Source: a virus. Taken from it: a DNA stretch of 10,304 bases. The notes beneath the pieces were generated by a model. The model was given only the letters and a program-made list of their open reading frames with translations, did no database searches and was not told the DNA's origin. The translations under genes were made by a program, and so were the position numbers. This document shows positions 1-10,304 of this stretch, piece after piece. Within the stretch, counting starts at the first letter, position 1; each line of letters begins with the position of its first letter. Where the stretch lies: the UHGV virus genome UHGV-1714029; one strand, given 5' to 3'.

Positions 1-74
1 ATGAAGTGAACGGTATTTCCCGCGTGGTGTATGACATCAGCGGCAAGCCGCCAGCGACTATTGAGTGGGAATGA
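1..74 (+). CDS. guaA: GMP synthase C-terminal end (host gene, 5' part outside window)
   Basis: Frame 3 translates to EVNGISRVVYDISGKPPATIEWE followed by TGA at 72-74; I recognise this as the conserved C-terminal tail of enterobacterial GuaA. An intrinsic terminator follows. Confidence 0.75.
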   Translation, partial: EVNGISRVVYDISGKPPATIEWE

Positions 75-122
75 TTAACAGCTAACTCATAGCAAGTCAT
101 TCCTATTCAGATGCTAATTCAA

Positions 123-153
123 CCCTCTGTTTTTACAGGGGGTTTTTGTTTTT
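123..153 (+). terminator. Rho-independent terminator downstream of guaA
   Basis: Stem CCCTCTG (123-129) pairs with CAGGGGG (136-142) with one G-U wobble, 6-nt loop, then TTTTTGTTTTT. Confidence 0.6.
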
Positions 154-202
154 ATGTATTCATTTCTATTCACTCTATACCATATTTTTCGGCGGTACAG
201 GT

Positions 203-238
203 GACGGTATTACCTTAAAGGTATACTCTCATACCGTC
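203..238. promoter_or_regulatory. Nested dyad-symmetry element upstream of int, containing an operator-like TTACC-N5-GGTAT site
   Basis: 8-bp inverted repeat GACGGTAT (203-210) / ATACCGTC (231-238) encloses TTACC-ttaaa-GGTAT (210-224), a 9/10 match to the palindrome found at the other phage promoters. Confidence 0.35.
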
Positions 239-266
239 ATGAAAATGGTTTCTATACGGGTGAATT

Positions 267-1517
267 GTGCTTACCGATACAAAATTAAAAAACCTCAAGC
301 CGCAGGACAAACTATACAAAGTCTCCGATCGTGACGGGCTGTATGTAGCTGTGCTTACGTCCGGTACGGTCTCGTTTCGCTATGACTACCGTATCAACGG
401 TCGCCGCGAAACACTGGTAATCGGGCAGTATGGGCGTGACGGTATCAGCCTGGCAGAAGCGCGGGAAGAACTGATTGCTGCAAAGAAGCTTCTTAAAGCA
501 GGCCAGTCGCCGGCTGCGGCTAAACGTGACGGTATCAAAAAGATTCGTGGTGCCGAGACGTTTGCGGTACATACCGACAGTTATATGAAACACGTCATCC
601 TGGCTGACAGTACCCGCGCAATGAAGCAGGCGGTGATCGACCGTGACATATTTCCGGTTCTTGGCAACAAAATGATGGCTGAAATTACCACATTGATGGT
701 TCGTGATTTGTGTGACCGGATTGTCGAACGCGGTGGTCGGGCAACAGCAGTACAGGCCAGGGAAATCATCAGCAGCGTATACCGTTACGCCAATGACCGT
801 GGTCATGGTTTGTTTAATCCTGCGGCTGACATTAAACCTTCGTCTATCGCCATATTTAAACCACGAGAGCGAACACTGACACCAGAAGAAATTGGCCTGT
901 TCTTCCGTACGCTGGATGCCATTGGTGCTATGGGCACTATGAAAATGGCTTTAAAGCTGGTGCTTATCACTATGGTTCGTAAAGGCGAATTCACCAATGC
1001 AACGTGGGATGAAATAGATTTTAAAAAATGGACATGGACAATTCCTTCAGACCGCATGAAGGGAAGCCGGGCGCACGTTATTTACCTGCCTAAACAGGCA
1101 CAGGATATATTGGTTGGGTTGCAGATGTGCGCTGGTGGAAGTGAATATCTGGTTCCTGGTCGTTACAATTTCCGGAAGCCATTATCTAATGCCGCGCTGA
1201 ACTCTCTGATCGACAGAACGGTGAAAATAATAAATGAAGATGGTGAGCATATTCAGGGCTTCACCGTACACGATATGCGCCGTACAGCCAGTACGTTGTT
1301 GCATGAGGCTGGTTATCCTTCAGACTGGATTGAAAAGGCTCTGGCACATGAGCAGAAAGGTGTGCGCGCCGTATATAACAAAGCGGAATACGCCAGACAG
1401 CGCGCCTACATGTTGCAGCAGTGGGCCGATATGATCGATTCCTGGATTGACGGGGAGCATACGGATCTGATTCCGTTCTCCCCGTCGAAGTTTGAGAAGT
1501 GGATGGCGGGGGAATAA
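267..1517 (+). CDS. int: Tyrosine site-specific integrase (P4/IntS-like phage integrase)
   Basis: GTG start at 267. N-terminus LTDTKLKNLKPQDKLYKVSDRDGLYVAV is typical of the integrase arm-binding domain; C-terminal catalytic region has HDMRRTASTLLHEAG (H-x-x-R) and a downstream Tyr (VYNKAEY). 416 aa. Confidence 0.9.
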   Translation: MLTDTKLKNLKPQDKLYKVSDRDGLYVAVLTSGTVSFRYDYRINGRRETLVIGQYGRDGISLAEAREELIAAKKLLKAGQSPAAAKRDGIKKIRGAETFAVHTDSYMKHVILADSTRAMKQAVIDRDIFPVLGNKMMAEITTLMVRDLCDRIVERGGRATAVQAREIISSVYRYANDRGHGLFNPAADIKPSSIAIFKPRERTLTPEEIGLFFRTLDAIGAMGTMKMALKLVLITMVRKGEFTNATWDEIDFKKWTWTIPSDRMKGSRAHVIYLPKQAQDILVGLQMCAGGSEYLVPGRYNFRKPLSNAALNSLIDRTVKIINEDGEHIQGFTVHDMRRTASTLLHEAGYPSDWIEKALAHEQKGVRAVYNKAEYARQRAYMLQQWADMIDSWIDGEHTDLIPFSPSKFEKWMAGE

Positions 1518-1520
1518 CGT

Positions 1521-1715
1521 TTAATTATTCTGCTGATTTTCTTCCATCTCGGCTTCTGCTGCCAGTGATTCAATTTTATCTGTGAATATTGCTGACAGTG
1601 TTGCAAATTCAGCATCAGTGACAGCGGGAATTGGAACAAACCTGATCCCGCTGTGTGCAAGCATGTTTGCAGTTTCAAGGCATTTCCTTAAATCTGCTGG
1701 TGATGCCCTGTTCAT
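1521..1715 (-). CDS. Hypothetical small acidic protein (64 aa), last gene of leftward operon
   Basis: ATG at 1715-1713 overlaps the methyltransferase TGA stop (ATGA coupling). Protein MNRASPADLRKCLETANMLAHSGIRFVPIPAVTDAEF... with acidic C-terminus. The longer 104-aa form in the ORF track would overlap the methyltransferase by about 120 nt. Confidence 0.45.
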   Translation of the reverse strand: MNRASPADLRKCLETANMLAHSGIRFVPIPAVTDAEFATLSAIFTDKIESLAAEAEMEENQQNN

Positions 1716-2362
1716 GCTGCACGCTCCCGCCCCTGGTTGTCTGTTGGTGACAGCGGAGAATTGCTGAATGCATTTGTTAATCCGCCAATATCCAACGCGT
1801 ATCCAGGGTGTAGTTGCACTGCCGGGTCTTCGCACTGATTACCCCAAACATCGAAGCCATGAGACGACTGGCGGGCGAACAGTTCAATGCGAGAAACATC
1901 GCCTAACAATTGCACAAGTTTTTCACGAACGACATCTGGTTTTCTTGAATGCTCAAGCCGCGGTGCGGTAAATGATTGAACGATCCCTGCATTAATGCGC
2001 GGAGGTAGTTTTCCCTTTACTGCAAACAGGCAATATTCACTATTTGCGCGAGTCATGTGTCCCATACCCATAACCAGTTTATCTGGTTGTCGACTACCAC
2101 ATTTTATCCACGTGAAGCCCTTCATGGTCATCAGACGGAATCCCCAGGCTTCAACAACTTTTAGCGCTTCGAGTGGTTGTGTTGGCACCCACCACATTGC
2201 CAACAGACAGTTTTCATCGGCCAAATCCCACACAGGAAGGCGGCAGATATCCAGCACACTCATAACCGGATATTTAAAACCGGCACCGCGATTACCATCT
2301 GCGGCTTTGTCCCGGTATACCCAGGGGGGATCTGCATAGATTAGTGTGTATTTCTTAGTCAT
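1712..2362 (-). CDS. MT-A70 family DNA N6-adenine methyltransferase (orphan, phage-encoded)
   Basis: Catalytic motif DPPW in YTLIYADPPWVY, plus downstream motifs (LAMWWVP, EAWGF, EHSRKP, RIELFAR). ATG at 2362 is preceded by GGTGG; the ORF-track GTG at 2374 is a less likely start. Confidence 0.85.
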   Translation of the reverse strand: MTKKYTLIYADPPWVYRDKAADGNRGAGFKYPVMSVLDICRLPVWDLADENCLLAMWWVPTQPLEALKVVEAWGFRLMTMKGFTWIKCGSRQPDKLVMGMGHMTRANSEYCLFAVKGKLPPRINAGIVQSFTAPRLEHSRKPDVVREKLVQLLGDVSRIELFARQSSHGFDVWGNQCEDPAVQLHPGYALDIGGLTNAFSNSPLSPTDNQGRERAA

Positions 2363-2654
2363 AAACCACCCCACAACATCCTATGCCGCTATAGTCGCCA
2401 CGGCGAAGGCCGTTACCTTTTGTGATACATTGGTCCCTGCGAACCGCGATCCTTGCACGCTCAACATCACCAGAAGCAACATCCATACACTGAAGCCAAA
2501 GGTGGGCGGCAATGCGGAACTGCCCTTTTTTCTCTCTTTCAATCGCGCGTTTTTCGATCTCTATCGCCGCAGGAGTAACGGCAACAACCTTTGAAGGGCT
2601 GCGCATTGAAACCTTGTTCATGTGATATTTTTCAAGTCGGCTTAACTTTCTCAC
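2355..2654 (-). CDS. Hypothetical protein, translationally coupled to the methyltransferase
   Basis: ORF ends ...GVVYD with TAA overlapping the methyltransferase ATG (ATGACTAA). Start is uncertain: GTG 2654 with an AGAGGG SD 9 nt upstream, or internal ATG at 2621 or 2606. No recognisable domain. Confidence 0.55.
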   Translation of the reverse strand: MRKLSRLEKYHMNKVSMRSPSKVVAVTPAAIEIEKRAIEREKKGQFRIAAHLWLQCMDVASGDVERARIAVRRDQCITKGNGLRRGDYSGIGCCGVVYD

Positions 2655-2710
2655 TTAATCCAACCCTCTCTGAAAATTAATGCCAGCAGATAAAGCCATG
2701 CTGAAACAGA

Positions 2711-2736
2711 GGTCAGGAATAAGTACCATCCTGACC
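2711..2736 (-). terminator. Hairpin downstream of the AlpA-like gene, possible weak terminator or attenuator
   Basis: Perfect 8-bp inverted repeat GGTCAGGA (2711-2718) / TCCTGACC (2729-2736) with 10-nt loop. On the minus-strand transcript it is followed by UCUGUUUC, a weak U-tract. Confidence 0.25.
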
Positions 2737-2763
2737 ATTTGCTCCAGTGCCTTAGCAGCACAC

Positions 2764-3012
2764 TCATGCCGCGTTGCTCACAGGACGATATACACGTTGC
2801 TGAACAGGAGGTTTTTTACCCTGGAACTCTGCCGGGCTTGCTGCCTGACGTTCATCAAGCCAACGCTCAACTTCGTCACGGTTCCATGCGCAGCGTTTGT
2901 CAGTGATATACCAGCGTTTAGGAAATTCACCTGCGCGCTCCATACGGTCGATAGTGCTCCATGACAGTGGCACCACCGCCAGGAGTTCCTTCTTACCTAA
3001 TGCACCTTTCAT
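2764..3012 (-). CDS. AlpA-family helix-turn-helix regulator / excisionase-like protein
   Basis: 82 aa. LLAVVPLSWSTIDRMERAGEFPKRWYITDKRCAWNRDEVERWLDE matches the AlpA/Vis-type winged-HTH pattern. SD AGAGAGG sits 5-6 nt upstream of ATG 3012. Confidence 0.75.
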   Translation of the reverse strand: MKGALGKKELLAVVPLSWSTIDRMERAGEFPKRWYITDKRCAWNRDEVERWLDERQAASPAEFQGKKPPVQQRVYRPVSNAA

Positions 3013-3034
3013 AAATACCTCTCTTGGTTGCAGT

Positions 3035-3053
3035 GCGGCGCGTGTGGCGCCGC
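3035..3053 (-). other. GC-only hairpin between recT stop and the AlpA-like start
   Basis: GCGGCGC (3035-3041) and GCGCCGC (3047-3053) form a perfect 7-bp stem with a 5-nt loop. No U-tract on either strand. Confidence 0.4.
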
Positions 3054-3061
3054 GGTGGTGG

Positions 3062-4084
3062 TTACTCGAATTCTGGACGCATATCGTTAAGCGTCATCAT
3101 GAATTTTTGGTGATATTCATCACCGAGCTTGTCAGCCATGGTGTTAATTTCATTTTCAGCGCGCTTGAACATCGTTTTTGCATCTTCAGCAGATGGATCC
3201 AGGCTATTAAGTATCGCGATGATATATTCTCGAGCTTCTTCTCGTTCTGAATCTGAAATTGGCGATAGGTGTTGACGCTCATCGTCAACTACGGAATATT
3301 CACCAGTGATAACAGCTGCGTTATCTTGGCTAAGTCCAGCTTCAGCGCGCTCATCCATAACAACAGCCTTCTGCATTTCAATAGAAACAGGAAGATATTT
3401 GAACAGTCGGCGAATTACTGTTTTTTTAGCCATCTCATCGAAGTGATCAACCCATGGGCCACTGCTACCGGCTTTGCTCAGTGCACGAACTTTCTCAACG
3501 TCTGCCCGGCTCATAACTTCAAATTGGACACCGCCATCTTTCAGTCGGGCAACGGCGTAAACGTGCGTTAGTTCTCCGCGGTCACCTGTTTCGCAAGGTA
3601 AATGCTCGAGCGTTTCTTCCAGGCCGTATGAGTAGCTGAATTTGTCGTTTGTATGTACGGTACGAGCCGAGATGCTCAGGATCTGCCCTGAGCGGCGGGC
3701 AAGGTCAATCATTCCGCGATAGCCGATAATCAGCTGTGCTTCTGTAGATACGGTTTCCCATCTTCCATTTACTTTCTGGCGTTTGTCGAACGGTATCAGG
3801 TAAGCGTGTCCAAGAGCTCCGCCTGGTTCAAGACCCAATTGGGCACATTGCATAATTGCCCCCAGGAAGCTGGCTTGGTCGCATGATGCAAGTTTTGGAA
3901 CCTTTCGGATCTCTGTGGTTGCTATGCGCGCCAGACGGTCTGCTGTCATGTGCTTTGGAAGTGCCAAAGCCATCTGAGCTTTAATTTTTGGGTCTGCCAG
4001 AAGTCCGGCCAGAGTTGTTGGTTTCTCATTATGATGTGCAACTTGGTTACCGGTAGCCGCTGCCTTAAGTGCATTGATAGACAT
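3062..4084 (-). CDS. recT: RecT family single-strand annealing recombinase
   Basis: 340 aa. Strong resemblance to RecT across the core (IATTEIRKVP, GAIMQCAQLGLEPG, GHAYLIPF, IIGYRGMIDLARRSGQ, THVYAVARLKDGG, EMAKKTVIRRLFKYLPVSIE). Strong SD AAGGAG before ATG 4084. Confidence 0.92.
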   Translation of the reverse strand: MSINALKAAATGNQVAHHNEKPTTLAGLLADPKIKAQMALALPKHMTADRLARIATTEIRKVPKLASCDQASFLGAIMQCAQLGLEPGGALGHAYLIPFDKRQKVNGRWETVSTEAQLIIGYRGMIDLARRSGQILSISARTVHTNDKFSYSYGLEETLEHLPCETGDRGELTHVYAVARLKDGGVQFEVMSRADVEKVRALSKAGSSGPWVDHFDEMAKKTVIRRLFKYLPVSIEMQKAVVMDERAEAGLSQDNAAVITGEYSVVDDERQHLSPISDSEREEAREYIIAILNSLDPSAEDAKTMFKRAENEINTMADKLGDEYHQKFMMTLNDMRPEFE

Positions 4085-4093
4085 TTTTTCTCC

Positions 4094-4993
4094 TTACTTC
4101 ATTCTGAAGACGCGTTGTGTCGTTGTTGTTTTGAATTTTTCGAATAACTCAGGGTGTACTGACTGGAATAGCTTCTGGTCGAATCTGTTGCTGATCTGAG
4201 ATTTCCATGTGCAGAGCGGCTTTCCGTCCAGGGTCAGGACTGAATGCTCTTGCATGTACATCTTCAGCTTCTCTTCTGATATAGCTATTTCTTCTTCCAG
4301 TGATTTTCTGCGTGACTTCATGTCTCGTAGATCGTTGAATAGTGCGAGTGCCTTTCCGTCAGCCTCGATACTTGTCCCGGCATCTTTCTCAAACATCAGC
4401 GATACATCGCTTACGCTGGTAGCTTCCGGCGGGTTAAGATTTTTCACTCGGTCCCAGAAAGCGATTTCTTTTTCTAAGATCGCCTGGATAGTTTCTTCAT
4501 CACGCTCAACCCGATAGATTCGGAAGTCGTCGCCACCGATAAGCACACCGAAAACGCATACCTGTTTGTTTGTAACCATCAACCCATGCATGGCCTGGGC
4601 CGTGTAATGCACAGGAATTGCATCTGTCTGGATTTCTCCCCATTCTTTGGCTTTGAACGGGCTAACTGTTTTGATCTCAATGTTCTCTCCTGACGCTGCT
4701 TCTGCATCGATCTCAGCTGCAATAAAATCGTAATCACGGTGGATATAGCGGTTTCCGCGATGAACGATTTCCATCCCTGTTTCCTCAGAAAGCAGGTCTA
4801 TTACGTATGGCTCCATACGCTGGCCACGCGTGAAAACTTTCTGCTTGCTTGGGTCTACTGGTTTGACACGTGGCTGGACCTTATCCAGATAAACCTCAAG
4901 CGGGGTGCGCCATGGGCTAATTCCAAGAATCCCTGCAACATCGCTTCCTCCGATGTATTTTCTTCTATCCATGATTCCAGCGTTCCGCATCAT
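4094..4993 (-). CDS. YqaJ-like (lambda Exo / RecE-type) recombination exonuclease, partner of RecT
   Basis: N-terminal YIGGSDVAGILGISPWRTPLEVY is the YqaJ signature. PD-(D/E)xK-like residues in DFIAAEIDAE...IEIKTV. ATG 4993 overlaps the upstream gene stop (ATGA); an alternative ATG lies 7 codons in. Confidence 0.85.
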   Translation of the reverse strand: MMRNAGIMDRRKYIGGSDVAGILGISPWRTPLEVYLDKVQPRVKPVDPSKQKVFTRGQRMEPYVIDLLSEETGMEIVHRGNRYIHRDYDFIAAEIDAEAASGENIEIKTVSPFKAKEWGEIQTDAIPVHYTAQAMHGLMVTNKQVCVFGVLIGGDDFRIYRVERDEETIQAILEKEIAFWDRVKNLNPPEATSVSDVSLMFEKDAGTSIEADGKALALFNDLRDMKSRRKSLEEEIAISEEKLKMYMQEHSVLTLDGKPLCTWKSQISNRFDQKLFQSVHPELFEKFKTTTTQRVFRMK

Positions 4994-5289
4994 GCCGCGT
5001 CCCTCTGCCCATCAATCCGATCCGCCAGATCCCAGCGGGCGATAATTGCCATTGCCTCGCGCCGGTAGGCATCCATTAGTTCTTCGAACTCAGGGCTGTC
5101 TTTAGCGGCCTCCAGTACTTCCTGGCGAACGCCTTTGCCTGTTACAACGTCGAAAGTTGAGGCCAGTTGATGAAGCCGGATACTCTCAATCAGTTCAACT
5201 TGTCGGTCATATAGCTGTTCTGACAGGCAGTAGTCCTTGTCGAATGCCAGCATGATTTTTTGAAGATTTTTCTGCTGATTAACGTTCAT
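4990..5289 (-). CDS. Small protein in the Gam/RacC position (possible host-nuclease inhibitor)
   Basis: 99 aa starting MNVNQQKNL at ATG 5289, 6 nt after a GGGAGGG SD. Sits directly upstream of exo-recT as gam does in lambda. C-terminal EFEELMDAYRREAMAIIARW weakly resembles the lambda Gam C-terminus, by recollection only. Confidence 0.6.
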   Translation of the reverse strand: MNVNQQKNLQKIMLAFDKDYCLSEQLYDRQVELIESIRLHQLASTFDVVTGKGVRQEVLEAAKDSPEFEELMDAYRREAMAIIARWDLADRIDGQRDAA

Positions 5290-5291
5290 TA

Positions 5292-5444
5292 TCAGCCCTC
5301 CCATATCTCGTTATCGTTGGCCACATCGCGAGCTTCTTTGCTGACGAAAGCCCACTTAATGCCTTCCTGTAAGGTGCGGAACTTCCAGCTCATGAATCCG
5401 CATGCAGTAACGCAGTACCAACCGTTGATGATTTTCCACTGCAT
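5292..5444 (-). CDS. Unreported 50-aa Trp-rich ORF, first gene of the leftward early operon (Kil position)
   Basis: Not in the ORF track (under 60 aa). ATG 5444-5442 with SD GAGGT 8 nt upstream; translation MQWKIINGWYCVTACGFMSWKFRTLQEGIKWAFVSKEARDVANDNEIWEG; TGA at 5294-5292, 2 nt before the next gene's ATG. Confidence 0.4.
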   Translation of the reverse strand: MQWKIINGWYCVTACGFMSWKFRTLQEGIKWAFVSKEARDVANDNEIWEG

Positions 5445-5463
5445 AATTTGTTACCTCGGTCTG

Positions 5464-5540
5464 TTACCGTTGAGGTAATGATTATGCGTATTTGGTTTGA
5501 TGTCAATAGATATGAGTTAAAAAAATTACCCATAAGGTAA
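5464..5540 (-). promoter_or_regulatory. Leftward early promoter region with two operator palindromes (OL-like)
   Basis: Perfect TTACC-N5-GGTAA at 5464-5478 and 5526-5540, flanking a perfect minus-strand -35 hexamer TTGACA (5506-5501). A -10-like CATAAT / TAATCA lies 14-16 nt downstream, overlapping the 5464 site. Confidence 0.5.
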
Positions 5541-5550
5541 TCTTGATGGC

Positions 5551-5577
5551 AATAAAAAAGCCGCCATGAGGCGGCTT
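5551..5577 (-). terminator. Rho-independent terminator of the repressor-like gene
   Basis: Minus-strand transcript reads AGCCGCC-UCAU-GGCGGCU followed by UUUUUUAUU, about 20 nt after the TAA stop at 5600-5598. Confidence 0.65.
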
Positions 5578-5597
5578 ACTTGCTGAAAACTATAGTT

Positions 5598-6182
5598 TTA
5601 TTGTTTATTTTTTTCGTTCTGGTTGATGACAAATTCAATGTAACTTTCGATCTTTGCTTTCTCGGTTTCGGGTAACAATGCGTAGCGCGAGCGGTCATAG
5701 TTGATGGTCGCAGGGTCGTGCGGGTGAATCAGTAATTCATAGCCGTGACGCCCGAATGCGGATGCAACATTCTCCAGGGTGGAAATGGAAACGCTGACTT
5801 CATTGTTTAACAGGCGGCTGATTGTCACCTGGGCGACGCCGGATGCGCGGTGAAGTTTTCCTTGTGTTGAAAGGTCGCGGCTTTCGCTCATCCAGCGTTC
5901 CAGGTTGTGAGCCGCCAGCTGACCAATGTCGCTTGGTCCGACAGGCTGAAAACCCTCCTGAGAAAGCGAGCGATCGATATCAAGCCAGTTACGTGGTTTA
6001 TTGGCGGCAGCTTCAATTTTTCGCGCAACCTGGTCGCCGATAACCTTCTTGCCAAGAGCCCAGCGGTTTACCAGATTTGCCTGAGTTCCAAGTTTTTCTG
6101 CCATCCGCGTCTGAACACCATTGAATTCACGGTCGATCAAGTCGTTGAGATTTTGCCTGCGGACGTCCTGGATACTTTTCAT
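5598..6182 (-). CDS. Repressor-like protein with two HTH (XRE/Cro-C1 type) domains and no S24 peptidase domain
   Basis: 194 aa. HTH 1 around TRMAEKLGTQANLVNRWALGKKVIGDQVARKIEAA; HTH 2 around ASGVAQVTISRLLNNEVSVSISTLENVASAFG. No Ala-Gly cleavage site or Ser/Lys dyad region. Divergent from a Cro-like gene across an operator-rich spacer. Confidence 0.7.
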   Translation of the reverse strand: MKSIQDVRRQNLNDLIDREFNGVQTRMAEKLGTQANLVNRWALGKKVIGDQVARKIEAAANKPRNWLDIDRSLSQEGFQPVGPSDIGQLAAHNLERWMSESRDLSTQGKLHRASGVAQVTISRLLNNEVSVSISTLENVASAFGRHGYELLIHPHDPATINYDRSRYALLPETEKAKIESYIEFVINQNEKNKQ

Positions 6183-6237
6183 TTTCTGGAAAATCGTCTC
6201 ATATATGAATCAGTAGATGATTCAATTTAAAGCAATA

Positions 6238-6300
6238 TTACCCAACAGGTAAATGCACCTCATAGGTAACTATCCTTGATTTTTGTTACCTTATGGGTGA
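6238..6300. promoter_or_regulatory. Divergent immunity-region operator cluster (OR-like, three sites)
   Basis: TTACC-caaca-GGTAA at 6238-6252 (perfect), GCACC-tcata-GGTAA at 6255-6269 (8/10), TTACC-ttatg-GGTGA at 6286-6300 (9/10), lying between the repressor-like ATG (6182, minus) and the Cro-like ATG (6337, plus). Confidence 0.55.
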
Positions 6301-6336
6301 ATATTTATTATCTGAAATAAATATCAGGCAATAGCT

Positions 6337-6567
6337 ATGAGCGATAACGGACATTTCGATTTCAAAAAGCACTGGCTTGCACTTACTCCGGATGAGCGTG
6401 AAGCCTTCGCACAGGAAGCCGGAACGACGAGTCACTATATCCAGACTCACTTAACAGGTAAGCGCAAAATGCCAGGTAAAGTATTGATGAATGGGCTTTT
6501 TAAAGCCTGTAAAACAAGACAATGGCTGCGCTCAAAAGCAGAACTGGCATACTTCTTCTACTCATGA
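6337..6567 (+). CDS. Cro-like HTH regulator (first gene of rightward early operon)
   Basis: 76 aa with an XRE-type HTH (FAQEAGTTSHYIQTHLTGKRKMP). Divergent from the repressor-like gene and followed by an intrinsic terminator. Confidence 0.6.
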   Translation: MSDNGHFDFKKHWLALTPDEREAFAQEAGTTSHYIQTHLTGKRKMPGKVLMNGLFKACKTRQWLRSKAELAYFFYS

Positions 6568-6588
6568 TATCCAGCTACAACCCTCTGT

Positions 6589-6611
6589 AGACCGCCACCC
6601 GGCGGTCTTTT
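6589..6611 (+). terminator. Rho-independent terminator after the Cro-like gene (tR1-like)
   Basis: AGACCGCC (6589-6596) and GGCGGTCT (6601-6608) form a perfect 8-bp stem with loop ACCC, followed by TTTT. Confidence 0.65.
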
Positions 6612-6622
6612 CATATCTATTC

Positions 6623-6637
6623 GTACCTCAAAGGTAA
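6623..6637. promoter_or_regulatory. Operator-like palindrome downstream of the tR1-like terminator
   Basis: GTACC-tcaaa-GGTAA, a 9/10 match to the TTACC-N5-GGTAA motif, about 80 nt upstream of the next gene. Confidence 0.4.
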
Positions 6638-6717
6638 TAAAAAACCAAATCTGGTTGATCTTTTTTTTGTGTCAGCACAAAATAACCGTAATCCCAATAC
6701 TAATAACAGGGCTTACC

Positions 6718-6918
6718 ATGGAAATCATTACACGTATTGATGCCGCAAAGCGCGGACTTAAACGCTATTACACCGGAAAACAATGTAAGCACGGACATGA
6801 CAGTGAACGCTGGGTTTACAACGGACACTGTGTTGAGTGCACCATGGAATCAAACCGTCGCATCAGGGCAGAGATTAAGCAGATCATGATTAATTCCTCC
6901 CCACAACATTCAAGCTGA
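6718..6918 (+). CDS. Small Cys/His-rich protein (putative zinc-binding regulator, cII position)
   Basis: 66 aa from ATG 6718 (SD AGGG 6 nt upstream): MEIITRIDAAKRGLKRYYTGKQCKHGHDSERWVYNGHCVEC... with a C-x-H-x-H ... H-C-x-x-C arrangement. The TTG-initiated 87-aa form in the ORF track is unlikely. Confidence 0.55.
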   Translation: MEIITRIDAAKRGLKRYYTGKQCKHGHDSERWVYNGHCVECTMESNRRIRAEIKQIMINSSPQHSS

Positions 6919-6933
6919 TAGCGGAGATTAATC

Positions 6934-7749
6934 ATGAGCAGACATGCAACAGATTGGGCCTGGGAGACAGATCCAGGTAGCTCGTCATTAAAGCTCATAC
7001 TGCTCTCGATGGCTGACAGAGCCGATGAATATAACCTCTGCTACCCCAGCATAGAACGCCTCGTTAAAGACACTTGCCTGAATAAAAAAACCGTGCAGGC
7101 CGGGCTTATATCGCTCATGAAAATGGGTCTTATTTCAGATACCGGAGAGAGAAAGGGGGCGACGAAAAGAGTACGGGTTTTCTCTCTTAATATAACCAAA
7201 AACGGGAACATTAAAGGCGACCGGGAGGGGGGTAATGAACCCGAAAACGGTAATGAACCCGAAAACGGGAATATACCCAAAAACGGGATGTTGAATGATC
7301 CCAAAAACGGGATGTTGAATGATCCCAAAAACGGGATCCAGAACCAGTCATATAACCAGTCATTTAACCAAGAGAGGGAGAGCAGGACAAAAAACGGGGA
7401 TTCTGTGCATCATGACCCCGGCGCAAACAACGCCGTGATGAATAACTTTGTTCCTCCTGGTGGGCCAGGGCAATTAGGCAAATTTGTCATGCATGAACAA
7501 TGGCAACCATCAGATGACTTTCTTCGGAAAAGCTCATTGCAGGGGATCTACCTGGACAGTCTGCCAACGGCACAGGAACTTGCAGAGTTCAGAATTTACT
7601 GGATGGCTGAGGGTAAGGCATACCATCAGGCACAGTGGGAGCAGAAGCTGGCAAGGCGGCTGCAGATTAGCAGACAGAAGCAATCAACATTATCTGATAA
7701 CAACGTTCCGCACTGGAACAGCCCTGAAGCATGGGAGGATTTCTTGTGA
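6934..7749 (+). CDS. Replication initiator, lambda O-like (N-terminal HTH domain, iteron-encoded low-complexity linker)
   Basis: N-terminus DWAWETDPGSSSLKLILLSMADRADEYNLCYPSIERLVKDTCLNKKTVQAGLISLMKMGLI is a replication-protein HTH. Middle NGNEPENGNEPENGNIPKNGMLNDPKNGMLNDPKNG is encoded by tandem DNA iterons. TGA stop overlaps the P-like GTG. Confidence 0.8.
   Translation: MSRHATDWAWETDPGSSSLKLILLSMADRADEYNLCYPSIERLVKDTCLNKKTVQAGLISLMKMGLISDTGERKGATKRVRVFSLNITKNGNIKGDREGGNEPENGNEPENGNIPKNGMLNDPKNGMLNDPKNGIQNQSYNQSFNQERESRTKNGDSVHHDPGANNAVMNNFVPPGGPGQLGKFVMHEQWQPSDDFLRKSSLQGIYLDSLPTAQELAEFRIYWMAEGKAYHQAQWEQKLARRLQISRQKQSTLSDNNVPHWNSPEAWEDFL
7196..7399. repeat. Iteron array / probable origin of replication embedded in the O-like gene
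   Basis: Seven copies of CC(C)-R-AAAACGGG: a tandem block 7231-7332 with unit lengths 18, 18, 18, 24, 24 bp, plus outliers at 7196-7206 and 7389-7399. Each has short dyad symmetry (CCCG-AAAA-CGGG), like the lambda ori iterons. Confidence 0.7.
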
Positions 7750-8531
7750 ACAACGTTTTTACCGCGATACAAAACCGTGACGGAGAAGCCCTTTCTCGCA
7801 TGTCAGGTTATGAGCATCAGTACACCAACAATGACAACGTGGTGAACATGTCAGCAGAGAGGCTTGTTGATGCCCTTTTCAAACAGCTGAAACAACTGTT
7901 TCCGGCGGCAGTGGTAACCAACCTGAAGACGCCAGAGCAGGAAGTTGCTGCAAAACAGCAGTGGATTGCTGCGTTTGCCGAAGGGGGGATCCGAACCCGT
8001 GAACAGGTTTCTGCTGGTATGCGCCACGCCCGCGCCAGTGAATCTCCGTTCTGGCCGTCGCCAGGGCAATTCATCAAGTGGTGTAAAGACAGCAAGATGG
8101 TTCTTGGCGTCACCATTGACGATGTGATGGCGGAGTTTCACCGGTACAGCAAGGAAAAAAGTTTATATCCTGGTGGTCCCGAAAGATTCCCGTGGCGACA
8201 TCCGGTTATGTACTGGGTCGTATGTGATACCCGCCGTGCAATGTATCAGCGCCAGCTTAGCGAGATTGAGGTTGAGAAACACGCGCGCAGGCTGCTCGAT
8301 GATTGGGCGAAAAAGGTGGCTTCCGGACAGCAGATACCCGATCCGGTGATCAGCATACAGGCAAAGCCAGAACCCATGAGTACGCCTCCGGACACAGGGA
8401 GAGACGTTTACCATCCACCAGGGCGAAGTTTCGGGTGCATGCCTAACGCCGCCACCCTTGGGGGAATAACACCGGCGCAGTGGCTGATGGAGGAATACAG
8501 GCGGGGAAAGGCGTCAGGATTTATCAAGTAA
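7746..8531 (+). CDS. Replication protein P-like (DnaB helicase loader, lambda P family)
   Basis: Conserved core AAKQQWIAAFAEGGIRTREQVSAGMRHARASESPFWPSPGQFIKWC resembles lambda P. GTG 7746 overlaps the O-like stop (GTGA) 6 nt after SD GGGAGGA; an in-frame ATG at 7731 is the alternative start. Confidence 0.85.
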   Translation: MNNVFTAIQNRDGEALSRMSGYEHQYTNNDNVVNMSAERLVDALFKQLKQLFPAAVVTNLKTPEQEVAAKQQWIAAFAEGGIRTREQVSAGMRHARASESPFWPSPGQFIKWCKDSKMVLGVTIDDVMAEFHRYSKEKSLYPGGPERFPWRHPVMYWVVCDTRRAMYQRQLSEIEVEKHARRLLDDWAKKVASGQQIPDPVISIQAKPEPMSTPPDTGRDVYHPPGRSFGCMPNAATLGGITPAQWLMEEYRRGKASGFIK

Positions 8532-8536
8532 TACCA

Positions 8537-8557
8537 GCGCGATAGCGCATTTTTTTA
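8537..8557 (+). terminator. Weak intrinsic terminator candidate after the P-like gene
   Basis: GCGC-GATA-GCGC, a 4-bp GC stem, followed by A and seven T residues (8549-8556). The stem is short, so this is tentative. Confidence 0.3.
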
Positions 8558-8568
8558 CGTCTCGATAA

Positions 8569-8645
8569 TTACCTTCGAGGTAATAAAATATTCTAAAATC
8601 TATTGATTTCGTGTCTTATGTGGTTTTTAATTACCTAAGGGGTAA
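8569..8645. promoter_or_regulatory. Promoter/operator region upstream of the DUF1064 gene with two perfect operator palindromes
   Basis: TTACC-ttcga-GGTAA at 8569-8583 and TTACC-taagg-GGTAA at 8631-8645; TTGATT at 8604-8609 is a possible -35. The second site overlaps the RBS of the gene starting at 8649. Confidence 0.5.
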
Positions 8646-8648
8646 ATC

Positions 8649-8993
8649 ATGAGAAAACAGATACAGGCTCTTGGTCGACTCAAAACAGGCCAGATGAACA
8701 AAACAGAATCTGCGTATTGCCAGCACCTTGAGCTGCGTAAACGTGCAGGAGAAATCGTCTGGTATCGATTTGAGGGTATCAAGCTGCGGTTAGCTGACAA
8801 CACGTTCTATACGCCCGATTTTGCTGTGATGCTCGCCACCGGCGAGATGGAACTGCACGAAGTGAAAGGTTTCTGGAGCGACGACGCCAGGGTGAAAACC
8901 AAAGTCGCCGCAGATCAGTATCCGTTCCGAATCATCGGGGTAACGGTTAAACCAAAGAAAGCAGGTGGTGGCTGGAACATCGAAAAGTTCTGA
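8649..8993 (+). CDS. DUF1064-like phage protein with PD-(D/E)xK nuclease-like motifs
   Basis: 114 aa. YTPDF followed by ELHEVKG fits a PD-(D/E)xK core (D ... E-x-K). This family is typically found next to phage replication genes. Confidence 0.7.
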   Translation: MRKQIQALGRLKTGQMNKTESAYCQHLELRKRAGEIVWYRFEGIKLRLADNTFYTPDFAVMLATGEMELHEVKGFWSDDARVKTKVAADQYPFRIIGVTVKPKKAGGGWNIEKF

Positions 8994-9054
8994 ATCGACG
9001 ATCTTTTTAGTTATCAATGTAATCAATAAGTTATGTGGATAAGCGAGGGTAAAG

Positions 9055-9657
9055 ATGGAAAGTATGGCTGAAGGTATGATCAAAGATTTAGTGGCATCAG
9101 GGCATGCGTTAGCTGACGACATGACAGGCGCACCATCCGTGCTTGTTCGCTGTTTGGCAGCGCAACTGGAAGTTCAGTTGGTGCGTGCTAATGAGCTGGC
9201 CGAAGACCACCAGAGAGCGATTGAGTCAATTAAGCAGGCTGATGCAGCTGTTAAGTTGGCACACGAGAAGTTTTCGACGCTGGCAGCGGAGAATGCGGGG
9301 CTAAAGGCGATATGTGATGACCGTCGCAGATTCATCATGAATGGGGTGCAGATGGGTTATATCAAGGTGCCAGCAGCGGAAACAGATCCAGACCTTGAGA
9401 CAATTCGCATTGCTATATCACCACAAAAGCCCATTCCAGCCACCGATGCTTTCCTGTCTGAAGTGCGGGCGCAGGGGGTGGATGCTGCTATAGAAGCTGC
9501 AAAAAATCTGGTGGCCCAAGAATATGAGTATAAGGATTTCAAAGCGGCGCAGAGTGATTGCTGTATGCACCCTGGTTCAGACCTGGTAGGGAAGGTTGAA
9601 ATGACTGAGTGGTTAGTTGACTTTGCTGCCCAGCTTCGCAAAGGAGGCAACCAGTGA
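9055..9657 (+). CDS. Hypothetical phage protein (200 aa)
   Basis: ATG 9055 with SD GAGGG 5 nt upstream; TGA stop overlaps the next gene's GTG. No recognisable catalytic motif. Confidence 0.6.
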   Translation: MESMAEGMIKDLVASGHALADDMTGAPSVLVRCLAAQLEVQLVRANELAEDHQRAIESIKQADAAVKLAHEKFSTLAAENAGLKAICDDRRRFIMNGVQMGYIKVPAAETDPDLETIRIAISPQKPIPATDAFLSEVRAQGVDAAIEAAKNLVAQEYEYKDFKAAQSDCCMHPGSDLVGKVEMTEWLVDFAAQLRKGGNQ

Positions 9658-10253
9658 GCAAGATTGATTATCAGGCACTGCGTGCTAAGGCAGAAAAAGC
9701 AACGTGTGGCGAGTGGTCGCTCGAATATGGAGAGGGCCGATTTGATGGTGATGATGCTCTAATTCATCGCGAGGCTGCTGGATATATTCCCATTTGCAGA
9801 ATTGAAGGGGCGCATCCAGAAAGCGGTTTCGATGAAGATTTCCAAATGGAACAGCAGGCCAATGCTGAATTCATCGCCGCAGCCAATCCCGCTACCGTCT
9901 TAGCGCTGCTGGGCGAGCTGGAAGCAGAGGCAGTTATGTTCTGTATATCAGGACAAAATGTAGATTCAGAAGAACATGTATCAACCAGCAAAGCGGTTGT
10001 TGATGCCTGGGTTGAAGAATGGAATCAGGTTGACGGAAGTCCTGGCGAACCACTGTACAAAACTATGCCACTCTACTATCACGCTGCCTTGCCAGCGCCG
10101 GTAGTGCCGGAAGGGCTTGTTAAAGCGGTACGCTTTTATGAACAGGTAAAGTGTGAGAATCCGCCAGCCGAAACCGGAGCATGGAAAGACGCTGTTGACT
10201 GGGTACTCGAAGAAGCTTGCCAGGCTGTAAACATTGGCATCAAAGGAGGGTGA
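9654..10253 (+). CDS. ead/Ea22-like family phage protein (tentative)
   Basis: GTG 9654, 6 nt after SD AAGGAGG. N-terminal IDYQALRAKAEKATCGEW and the block NAEFIAAANPATVLALLGELEAE resemble the conserved N-terminal module of ead/Ea22-like prophage proteins, as recollected. Confidence 0.55.
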   Translation: MSKIDYQALRAKAEKATCGEWSLEYGEGRFDGDDALIHREAAGYIPICRIEGAHPESGFDEDFQMEQQANAEFIAAANPATVLALLGELEAEAVMFCISGQNVDSEEHVSTSKAVVDAWVEEWNQVDGSPGEPLYKTMPLYYHAALPAPVVPEGLVKAVRFYEQVKCENPPAETGAWKDAVDWVLEEACQAVNIGIKGG

Positions 10254-10254
10254 T

Positions 10255-10304
10255 ATGGCAACTTTGCAGGAATTAATCGACCTGACGCCAGAACAGGAAA
10301 AAGC
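10255..10304 (+). CDS. Start of a further phage ORF (partial, runs off the window)
   Basis: ATG 10255 preceded by SD AAGGAGGG and 2 nt after the upstream TGA; translation begins MATLQELIDLTPEQEK. Confidence 0.4.
   Translation, partial: MATLQELIDLTPEQEK

Follow-up and report, generated by a model that had tools for sequence, protein, structure and literature searches.

The Rep–Ant pair of Salmonella phage SPC32H (Uetakevirus) reportedly constitutes a lytic switch, as worked out by Kim and Ryu in 2013 (J Virol 87:11775) and by Kim et al. in 2016, with Ant said by Kim and Ryu to represent a structurally distinct class of protein. In PMC9986798, SPC32H Rep is described as consisting of an N-terminal DNA-binding domain, a middle dimerization domain, and a C-terminal domain involved in both tetramerization and Ant binding, with residues Phe187 and Phe190 located at the tetramer interface. 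It is as a tetramer that this Rep binds to DNA, as described in PMC9638917, with an Ant tetramer then splitting the Rep tetramer into dimers. For several Salmonella prophages, the review PMC7380047, which cites Kim and Ryu 2013 along with other work, describes a sequence of events in which LexA self-cleavage gives rise to antirepressor production, and the repressor then is inhibited via protein–protein contact.

The DNA considered here, referred to as the window, is a stretch of 10,304 nucleotides. It comes from a prophage of the phiV10/epsilon15-like type (Uetakevirus) that is integrated at guaA, and makes up its left (early) arm. Positions 1-59 still belong to host guaA, being its 3' end, and positions 60-76 are the att core, ATTGAGTGGGAATGATT, which according to PMC9782041 is the attP/attB core of phiV10-type phages. 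Following att are, in order, genes for a P4-type integrase, a DUF1382 protein, an MT-A70 methylase, PerC- and AlpA-like proteins, RecT, and a YqaJ exonuclease, with RecT and YqaJ encoded separately, unlike in phiV10, in which RecET is fused. Two small ORFs then separate the exonuclease gene from the gene that is the focus of this analysis, rep, past which are found a divergent cro-like gene, another small ORF, and genes for a DnaT-like/O-like initiator, a lambda-P-like loader, a DUF1064 protein, and eae/ead. The window is 100% identical over positions 1-10113 to the chromosome of E. coli ECE170 (NZ_CP196906.1) and 99.9% identical over positions 1-9683 to that of E. coli strain 85.0412 (NZ_CP122448.1), with the prophage lying between guaA and yfgI in both. 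Over the rep-cro region (positions 5400-6700), phiV10 and its relatives, i.e., Uetakevirus, the epsilon15-like podophages, share 97-98% identity with the window, and among 5426 complete E. coli genomes the rep region is present in 562. An Rfam scan of the window returned zero matches.

The rep gene is an ATG-started ORF found at 5598..6182 on the minus strand and encodes an immunity repressor of 194 amino acids. It occupies the cI position, with the early-left genes for RecT/YqaJ on one side and the O-like/P-like replication genes on the other, and is divergent from the cro-like gene (6337..6567, plus strand), whose 76-aa product matches phrog_35, 'transcriptional repressor', at E = 5.6e-13. 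The ORF is found at exactly the coordinates originally given, and its placement in the cI position is borne out by the divergent cro-like gene as well as by the flanking early genes. Rep is 100% identical to both gp40 of phiV10 and ORF21 of vB_EcoP_ZX5, such that there is no protein-level difference among the three, and the identical protein is found in 15 phage records, which along with the spread of the rep region among E. coli genomes marks it as a genuine gene. The phiV10 GenBank record describes gp40 as possessing 'two helix-turn-helix motifs' and as a 'putative transcriptional repressor', while for ZX5, as reported in PMC9782041, overexpression of ORF21 reduced free phages to zero, endolysin mRNA by 99.99%, and holin mRNA by 99.97%. 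The gene at 5598..6182 encodes the immunity repressor that has been described previously for prophages of the phiV10/epsilon15 type, and the system is one that is already known.

It is with SPC32H that the likeness to a solved protein is seen. A phmmer search of the PDB with Rep returned 5d50_A, 'Repressor', at E = 4e-42 (query 1-190 versus chain 2-197), along with 5d4z_A at E = 4e-20, and the repressor chains of 5D50 and 5D4Z are Rep of phage SPC32H, a gene which the SPC32H record, KC911856, labels "rep: repressor". By BLASTP the two proteins are 42% identical over 196 columns (E = 2e-53), with all three segments aligning and without large gaps. The homology therefore is full-length, and the three-module layout and the divergence of rep from a cro-like gene are shared as well. 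Tyr181 and Phe184 of Rep align with Phe187 and Phe190 of SPC32H Rep, so one tetramer-interface residue is Tyr here versus Phe there. SPC32H differs further in that the present host is E. coli, with integration at guaA.

Within Rep three modules can be distinguished, consisting of an N-terminal HTH DNA-binding domain (approximately residues 1-70), a middle HTH-like domain (approximately residues 90-155), and a C-terminal tail (approximately residues 158-194). Against Pfam, whole Rep matches HTH_3 (PF01381) at E = 1.2e-9 over two stretches, of which the best is residues 106-147, and it is these same residues that are matched also by HTH_26, LacI, and HTH_31, with residues 21-61 instead matching the Cro-like YdaS_toxin model. 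Scanned alone, the middle segment scores 27.1 bits for HTH_3, above the cut-off of 23, versus an N-terminal segment that falls under cut-off (HTH_3 at 16.1 bits, E = 0.012; YdaS at E = 3.9e-4). That N-terminal segment nonetheless aligns to the DNA-binding domain of the solved repressor, and residues 1-76 are covered by three PHROG repressor families. The last 42 residues, also scanned alone, had zero Pfam matches. The original prediction of tandem HTH domains consequently holds in terms of the two HTH_3 stretches, but the second of these corresponds to the dimerization domain of the solved homologue, and the C-terminal module had been overlooked. To speak of Rep as having "two HTH domains" is, in other words, a sequence-level statement only, with the second HTH-like domain, the one with the better Pfam score, most likely serving as a dimerization module, as judged from the homologue. 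Comparison of the N-terminal with the middle half of Rep by BLASTP gave zero alignment, and recent duplication is therefore excluded. For Rep, AlphaFold2 modelling from the single sequence gave a mean pLDDT of 44.9 and a pTM of 0.22, too low to be of use.

Among five phages the predicted recognition helix of Rep, NLVNRW (residues 36-41), is invariant in proteins that otherwise are 43-78% identical, which fits with a half-site that is common to these phages. Many invariant residues are kept as well within the C-terminal module across the phage Rep alignment.

Rep resembles lambda cI, P22 C2, and LexA in its N-terminal HTH DNA-binding domain and, in terms of genomic position and role, in where and as what it is found, but it differs from them in being without an S24 domain, an Ala-Gly site, or a module for RecA-stimulated autocleavage. 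Zero matches to Peptidase_S24 were seen with the whole of Rep at E <= 1 or with its three segments at E <= 10, with HMMER filters restricting what appears above E ~0.1. Neither an Ala-Gly nor a Cys-Gly dipeptide occurs anywhere among the 194 residues. In addition, the solved homologue spans residues 1-190 of the 194, and therefore space for an S24 domain is lacking. The domain search which had been proposed, of HTH versus Peptidase_S24, hence resulted in HTH_3 being matched and S24 not, and the predicted lack of a LexA/S24-like module stands, given Pfam results without S24 and a protein without Ala-Gly or Cys-Gly. Because Rep, as its sequence shows, possesses neither an S24 autoprotease nor a cleavage site, its direct inactivation by RecA should be impossible.

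Might the gene instead be that of an antitoxin, or of a different regulator of the XRE type, with immunity supplied by another gene? The annotation of the phage BP9 protein, 'plasmid maintenance system antidote protein VapI', points in that direction, as does a weak NCBIfam match to HigA (E = 0.0012, far under cut-off), but in ZX5 the identical protein stopped lytic growth as well as the transcription of lysis genes, the SPC32H homologue is a Rep that has been defined by experiment, no toxin gene adjoins rep, and rep is found in the cI position with operator-like palindromes to either side. The probability of this alternative is close to nil. The VapI and HigA antitoxin labels for Rep were rejected in light of ZX5 repression, SPC32H homology, and the lack of an adjacent toxin gene.

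The palindromes just mentioned are of the form TTACC-N5-GGTAA, of which, allowing up to one mismatch, there are 8 in the window versus 0.19 expected, an approximately 40-fold excess that is reached by none of 200 shuffles (0/200 with 8). In the whole prophage there are 16 such sites, again with at most one mismatch, and all but 3 of these are intergenic and at the starts of transcription units. In the rep-cro spacer is an exact palindrome, TTACCCAACAGGTAA (6238..6252), which overlaps a candidate rep promoter, itself weak, at its -35 and spacer. A degenerate site with 2 mismatches, GCACCTCATAGGTAA (6255..6269), is found 17 bp from it, and a site with 1 mismatch, TTACCTTATGGGTGA (6286..6300), overlaps the promoter on the cro side, again at the -35 and spacer. 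The latter is a candidate early-right promoter leading into the cro-like gene, TTGTTA-17 nt-TATTAT (6283..6311, plus strand; 9/12 by consensus scan). These three sites, starting at 6238, 6255, and 6286, are spaced by 17 and 31 bp, nearly equal to the spacing of 17 and 30 bp among their SPC32H equivalents (34390, 34407, and 34437), with the TTACC-N5-GGTAA motif itself being common to both phages. Beyond the cro-like gene are a terminator (6589..6608, plus strand) and, past that terminator, a further operator-like site, GTACCTCAAAGGTAA (6623-6637).

On the other side of rep, a candidate early-left promoter for the recombination operon, TTGACA-17 nt-AATCAT, is predicted at 5478..5506 on the minus strand (10/12 by consensus scan), with one exact palindrome, TTACCGTTGAGGTAA (5464..5478), at its -10/start and another, TTACCCATAAGGTAA (5526..5540), upstream of it. 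Directly downstream of rep is an intrinsic terminator (5558..5577, minus strand), consisting of an 8-pair stem, 6 of these pairs being G-C, followed by a T run, and in the phiV10 record a terminator is annotated in the same place, downstream of the repressor gene. Two more exact palindromes (8569-8583 and 8631-8645) precede the DUF1064 gene and its operon, and a site with 1 mismatch, TTACCTTAAAGGTAT (210..224), is located 43 bp upstream of int, with the same sequence being found upstream of int in SPC32H as well, at 26960. In the epsilon15 GenBank record the equivalent ATTACC-N5-GGTAAT sites are annotated as "protein_bind: repressor; lysogeny". Given their positions and statistics, along with this epsilon15 annotation, the (A)TTACC-N5-GGTAA(T) palindromes are likely the operators of Rep.

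What, then, inactivates a repressor of this sort? That an antirepressor gene should be encoded outside of the window, as had been predicted, is supported by an Ant homologue, but the further suggestion that it might be found on another prophage is not, as in the two closest complete genomes (those of ECE170 and strain 85.0412), in which the gene was read, it belongs to the same prophage. This gene, ant, is an 85-aa ORF at 35879..36136 on the minus strand of locus L005, approximately 29 kb from rep. It is annotated as a "hypothetical protein" and is divergent from the tail-fibre gene, which is its placement in SPC32H as well, i.e., divergent from the tailspike/tail-fibre gene. SPC32H Ant is found in the PDB as chain 5d50_E, 'Anti-repressor protein', and the product of the present gene shares 88% identity with it. 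This product matches the profile of phrog_450 (unknown function) and, weakly, that of phrog_1760, with no family matched in Pfam.

A LexA box, TACTGTATATTTATACAGTT, begins 20 nt ahead of the ATG of ant, in the same place as upstream of SPC32H ant, and agrees with the consensus at 18 of 20 positions. LexA consensus scanning found no other site of at least 15/20 in the 46-kb locus, and none within the window. The box is conserved in both phiV10 and SPC32H. The proposed search elsewhere in the genome for an antirepressor gene preceded by a LexA box has in this way yielded ant. A sigma-70 consensus scan around the box found nothing at threshold, and a TATATT hexamer can be seen by eye inside of the box. 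Over a 2-kb stretch around ant, SPC32H and SPC32N differ at two positions, one of which is in the ACAG arm of the LexA box. An ACAG-arm mutation of SPC32N was reportedly linked by Kim and Ryu in 2013 to constitutive Ant, with which the one-base box difference agrees. There are 36 phage records with Rep and 35 with Ant, these being practically the same set, i.e., Ant accompanies Rep in 35 of the 36. Among E. coli genomes the ant region is found in 529, versus the 562 with the rep region.

Rep very probably is, accordingly with these relatives, a lysogeny repressor of the phiV10/epsilon15 type, one that is non-cleavable and is instead inactivated by a LexA-controlled Ant. By extension from the solved SPC32H homologue, which is 42% identical, Rep would act as a tetramer, with its N-terminal HTH binding DNA, its middle HTH-like domain dimerizing, and its short C-terminal module both tetramerizing and docking the antirepressor. 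In lysogens, going by motif position and epsilon15 annotation, it would sit on (A)TTACC-N5-GGTAA(T) sites over the cro-side and early-left promoters as well as at other operon starts. Upon DNA damage, again by homology with SPC32H, host LexA would be cleaved, freeing the LexA box that overlaps the presumed ant promoter, with Ant then binding to the C-terminal domains of Rep, breaking the DNA-bound tetramer and thereby allowing lytic transcription. Both the oligomeric state of Rep and its contact with Ant are in this scheme extrapolated across 42% identity. The idea that the repressor is inactivated by a LexA-controlled antirepressor, which was part of the original prediction, gains support from SPC32H Rep homology, from PMC7380047, cited above, and from the LexA-boxed Ant homologue. 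The precedent offered, i.e., that of Gifsy repressors, was on the other hand not the best choice, with SPC32H/epsilon15 Rep-Ant, from the same phage genus, being closer. A literature search on mitomycin C induction of phiV10-type phages provided nothing useful.

With Gifsy-1, Gifsy-2, and Gifsy-3, and also with the CI/Tum pair of phage 186, what is shared, according to PMC7380047, is a non-cleavable repressor which is bound by a small, LexA-derepressed antirepressor. This likeness is one of mechanism only. Rep differs in its predicted tetramer with two HTH-like domains, and differs as well in its antirepressor being supplied in cis, from the same prophage. Trans-acting antirepressors nevertheless are documented for Gifsy phages (PMC3121763), and crosstalk of that type, with an antirepressor from another prophage acting in trans, had been the option raised earlier for this repressor. 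In favor of crosstalk is that, relative to SPC32H, Ant is far more conserved than Rep, and the invariant residues of the C-terminal module of Rep make cross-reaction among related phages plausible. However, in both of the closest genomes the same prophage carries its own cognate, LexA-boxed ant, Ant travels with Rep in nearly every phage record, and an outside helper is not required for Rep inactivation, leaving dependence on another prophage as a highly improbable explanation. A separate matter is that Ant might cross-induce heteroimmune relatives, which is conceivable because Ant is so much better conserved than is Rep, with the latter having strongly diverged from its SPC32H equivalent though Ant has hardly changed.

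Inactivation of Rep by the LexA-controlled Ant does not open a new question since the mechanism has already been solved, both genetically and structurally, in SPC32H. Neither the phiV10 nor the ZX5 source had tied the repressor to a small, LexA-controlled Ant. A better name for the gene would be rep (SPC32H-type, antirepressor-inactivated) rather than 'helix-turn-helix domain-containing protein', and the small 'hypothetical protein' gene beside the tail-fibre gene could be named ant. An SOS-dependent induction route is relevant as well to prophage mobilization under DNA-damaging antibiotics, and this relevance comes from the rep region being carried by approximately one-tenth of complete E. 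coli genomes.

In this lineage there is, in addition, an insertion between the tail genes and ant, absent from SPC32H, which carries a YafO-family toxin gene along with a second antirepressor-like gene and its isrK/C4 leader. This module, found outside of the window, is the only element here with some potential for novelty. The second gene (L005 34047..34733, minus strand) encodes a BRO-N::Ant-like protein of 228 aa, the C-terminal 80 residues of which are homologous to Ant (5d50_E, E = 1.1e-13), and the protein matches both phrog_450 and phrog_130, 'anti-repressor Ant' (the latter at E = 8e-57). Upstream of its start by 49 nt is a full-length match to C4 RNA (Rfam RF01695; L005 34782-34868), at 79.5 bits versus a cut-off of 45, and the leader contains also a full-length match to isrK, at 56.7 bits. 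Two exact Rep-type palindromes flank the isrK/C4 leader, and the same isrK and C4 pair is carried by phiV10 and ZX5. With ORF4 of ZX5, its "anti-repressor", the BRO-N protein shares 82% identity overall and shows no differences within the C-terminal 150 residues, and overexpression of ORF4 is reported in PMC9782041 to have lowered lysogen titres 1000-fold, from 1e9 to 1e6. The antirepressor test of the ZX5 study made use of this BRO-N protein, not of the small Ant.

It could be argued from these observations that the main inactivator of Rep is instead the BRO-N::Ant-like protein, acting under its isrK/C4 leader, with induction then being spontaneous or RNA-gated more than SOS-gated. Consistent with this are the Ant-like C-terminus, the closeness to a ZX5 protein that cuts lysogen titres, the C4 and isrK elements found directly upstream, and the spontaneous release of 1e7 PFU/mL by ZX5 lysogens. 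The effect of ORF4 overexpression was only partial, however, and every relative examined keeps the small, LexA-boxed ant, including SPC32H and epsilon15, which are free of BRO-N, while the equivalent BRO-N protein of phiV10 provides no separate Ant match, there being a single place of match in the phiV10 record. Nor are the BRO-N and small-Ant routes mutually exclusive. A primary role for the BRO-N protein is, on balance, unlikely, and the small, LexA-controlled Ant is preferred here as the inactivator of Rep.

The P1 immI region consists of a c4-icd-ant arrangement, with c4 an antisense RNA. As in P1/P7 immI, a C4 match here precedes an antirepressor-like gene, the BRO-N::Ant-like gene, but there is an isrK-like element too, Rep-type palindromes flank the leader, and it is to the Ant of SPC32H, not that of P1, that the BRO-N protein is related at its C-terminus. 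By analogy this suggests that the BRO-N::Ant-like gene may be a second input in the style of P1 immI, either SOS-independent or feed-forward. One repressor would then be subject, in this E. coli lineage, to two antirepression inputs, a LexA-gated Ant and an isrK/C4-gated BRO-N::Ant, which is a possibility that is entertained here tentatively and with more doubt than confidence. Were such a circuit to exist, then removal of Rep by the first Ant could derepress the second, thereby locking the switch, or the second could alternatively serve as an anti-immunity factor upon infection, as in P1 or P22. In ZX5, a small ORF annotated as an 'ash family protein' is found upstream of the antirepressor gene, where it overlaps the C4 match.

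Throughout the genus, sites matching (A)TTACC-N5-GGTAA(T), that is, putative operators of the immunity repressor Rep, precede nearly all transcription units; the portal operon and the divergent region between the antirepressor gene ant and the tail-fibre gene are among these. In the window these palindromes are found at 210, 5464, 5526, 6238, 6255, 6286, 6623, 8569, and 8631, and in L005, i.e., the prophage locus of E. coli ECE170 (NZ_CP196906.1 2192000-2238000), at 16853, 33959, 35000, 35093, and 36213. For Salmonella phage SPC32H, 0.48 such sites would be expected but 18 are observed. This placement suggests that Rep controls many promoters directly, beyond just the early pair.

Ant and its target have not diverged equally. 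Between this prophage and SPC32H, Ant (L005 35879-36136) is 88% identical, whereas Rep (window 5598-6182) is only 42% identical, an inequality which hints at possible cross-reactivity of Ant among phages that are related but heteroimmune.

A second antirepressor-like gene, outside of the window and within L005 34047-35107, has a product in which a BRO-N domain is joined to an Ant-like C-terminal domain, the latter matching the SPC32H Ant structure (5d50_E) with E = 1.1e-13. Directly upstream are Rfam matches to isrK (34887-34963) and to C4 antisense RNA (34782-34868), along with two exact TTACC-N5-GGTAA palindromes, those at 35000 and 35093. The same arrangement is seen in another locus, L003 (9610-10670), and phages phiV10 and ZX5 also carry the isrK and C4 pair. 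This layout resembles that of P1 immI. Adjoining the BRO-N gene, in a moron-like insertion, is a YafO-family toxin gene (L005 33199-33744; Pfam YafO_toxin, E = 1.1e-5), the antitoxin for which could be encoded by a short ORF upstream.

Within the window, the recombination module (3065-4990) consists of RecT and a YqaJ exonuclease as separate genes, whereas phiV10 has a fused RecET gene in this location, and the module has no nucleotide match to phiV10. This is a mosaic swap between phages which otherwise are 97-98% identical.

The O-like/DnaT-like replication initiator gene contains three adjacent tandem-repeat arrays (window 7231-7370; 18 bp x3.1, 24 bp x2.6, and 12 bp x2.4), giving rise at the protein level to NGNEPE/NGMLNDPK repeats. 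As these arrays look like iterons, a replication origin may lie inside of the initiator gene, as is likewise the case with lambda O.

Host DNA occupies window bases 1-59, with the prophage starting at 60 and the attachment core ATTGAGTGGGAATGATT (60-76) found at the 3' end of guaA. At the right end, inside an ead/Ea22-like gene, 10114-10304 departs from the ECE170 prophage, to which the rest of the window is identical, and the window's own genome therefore is a close relative.
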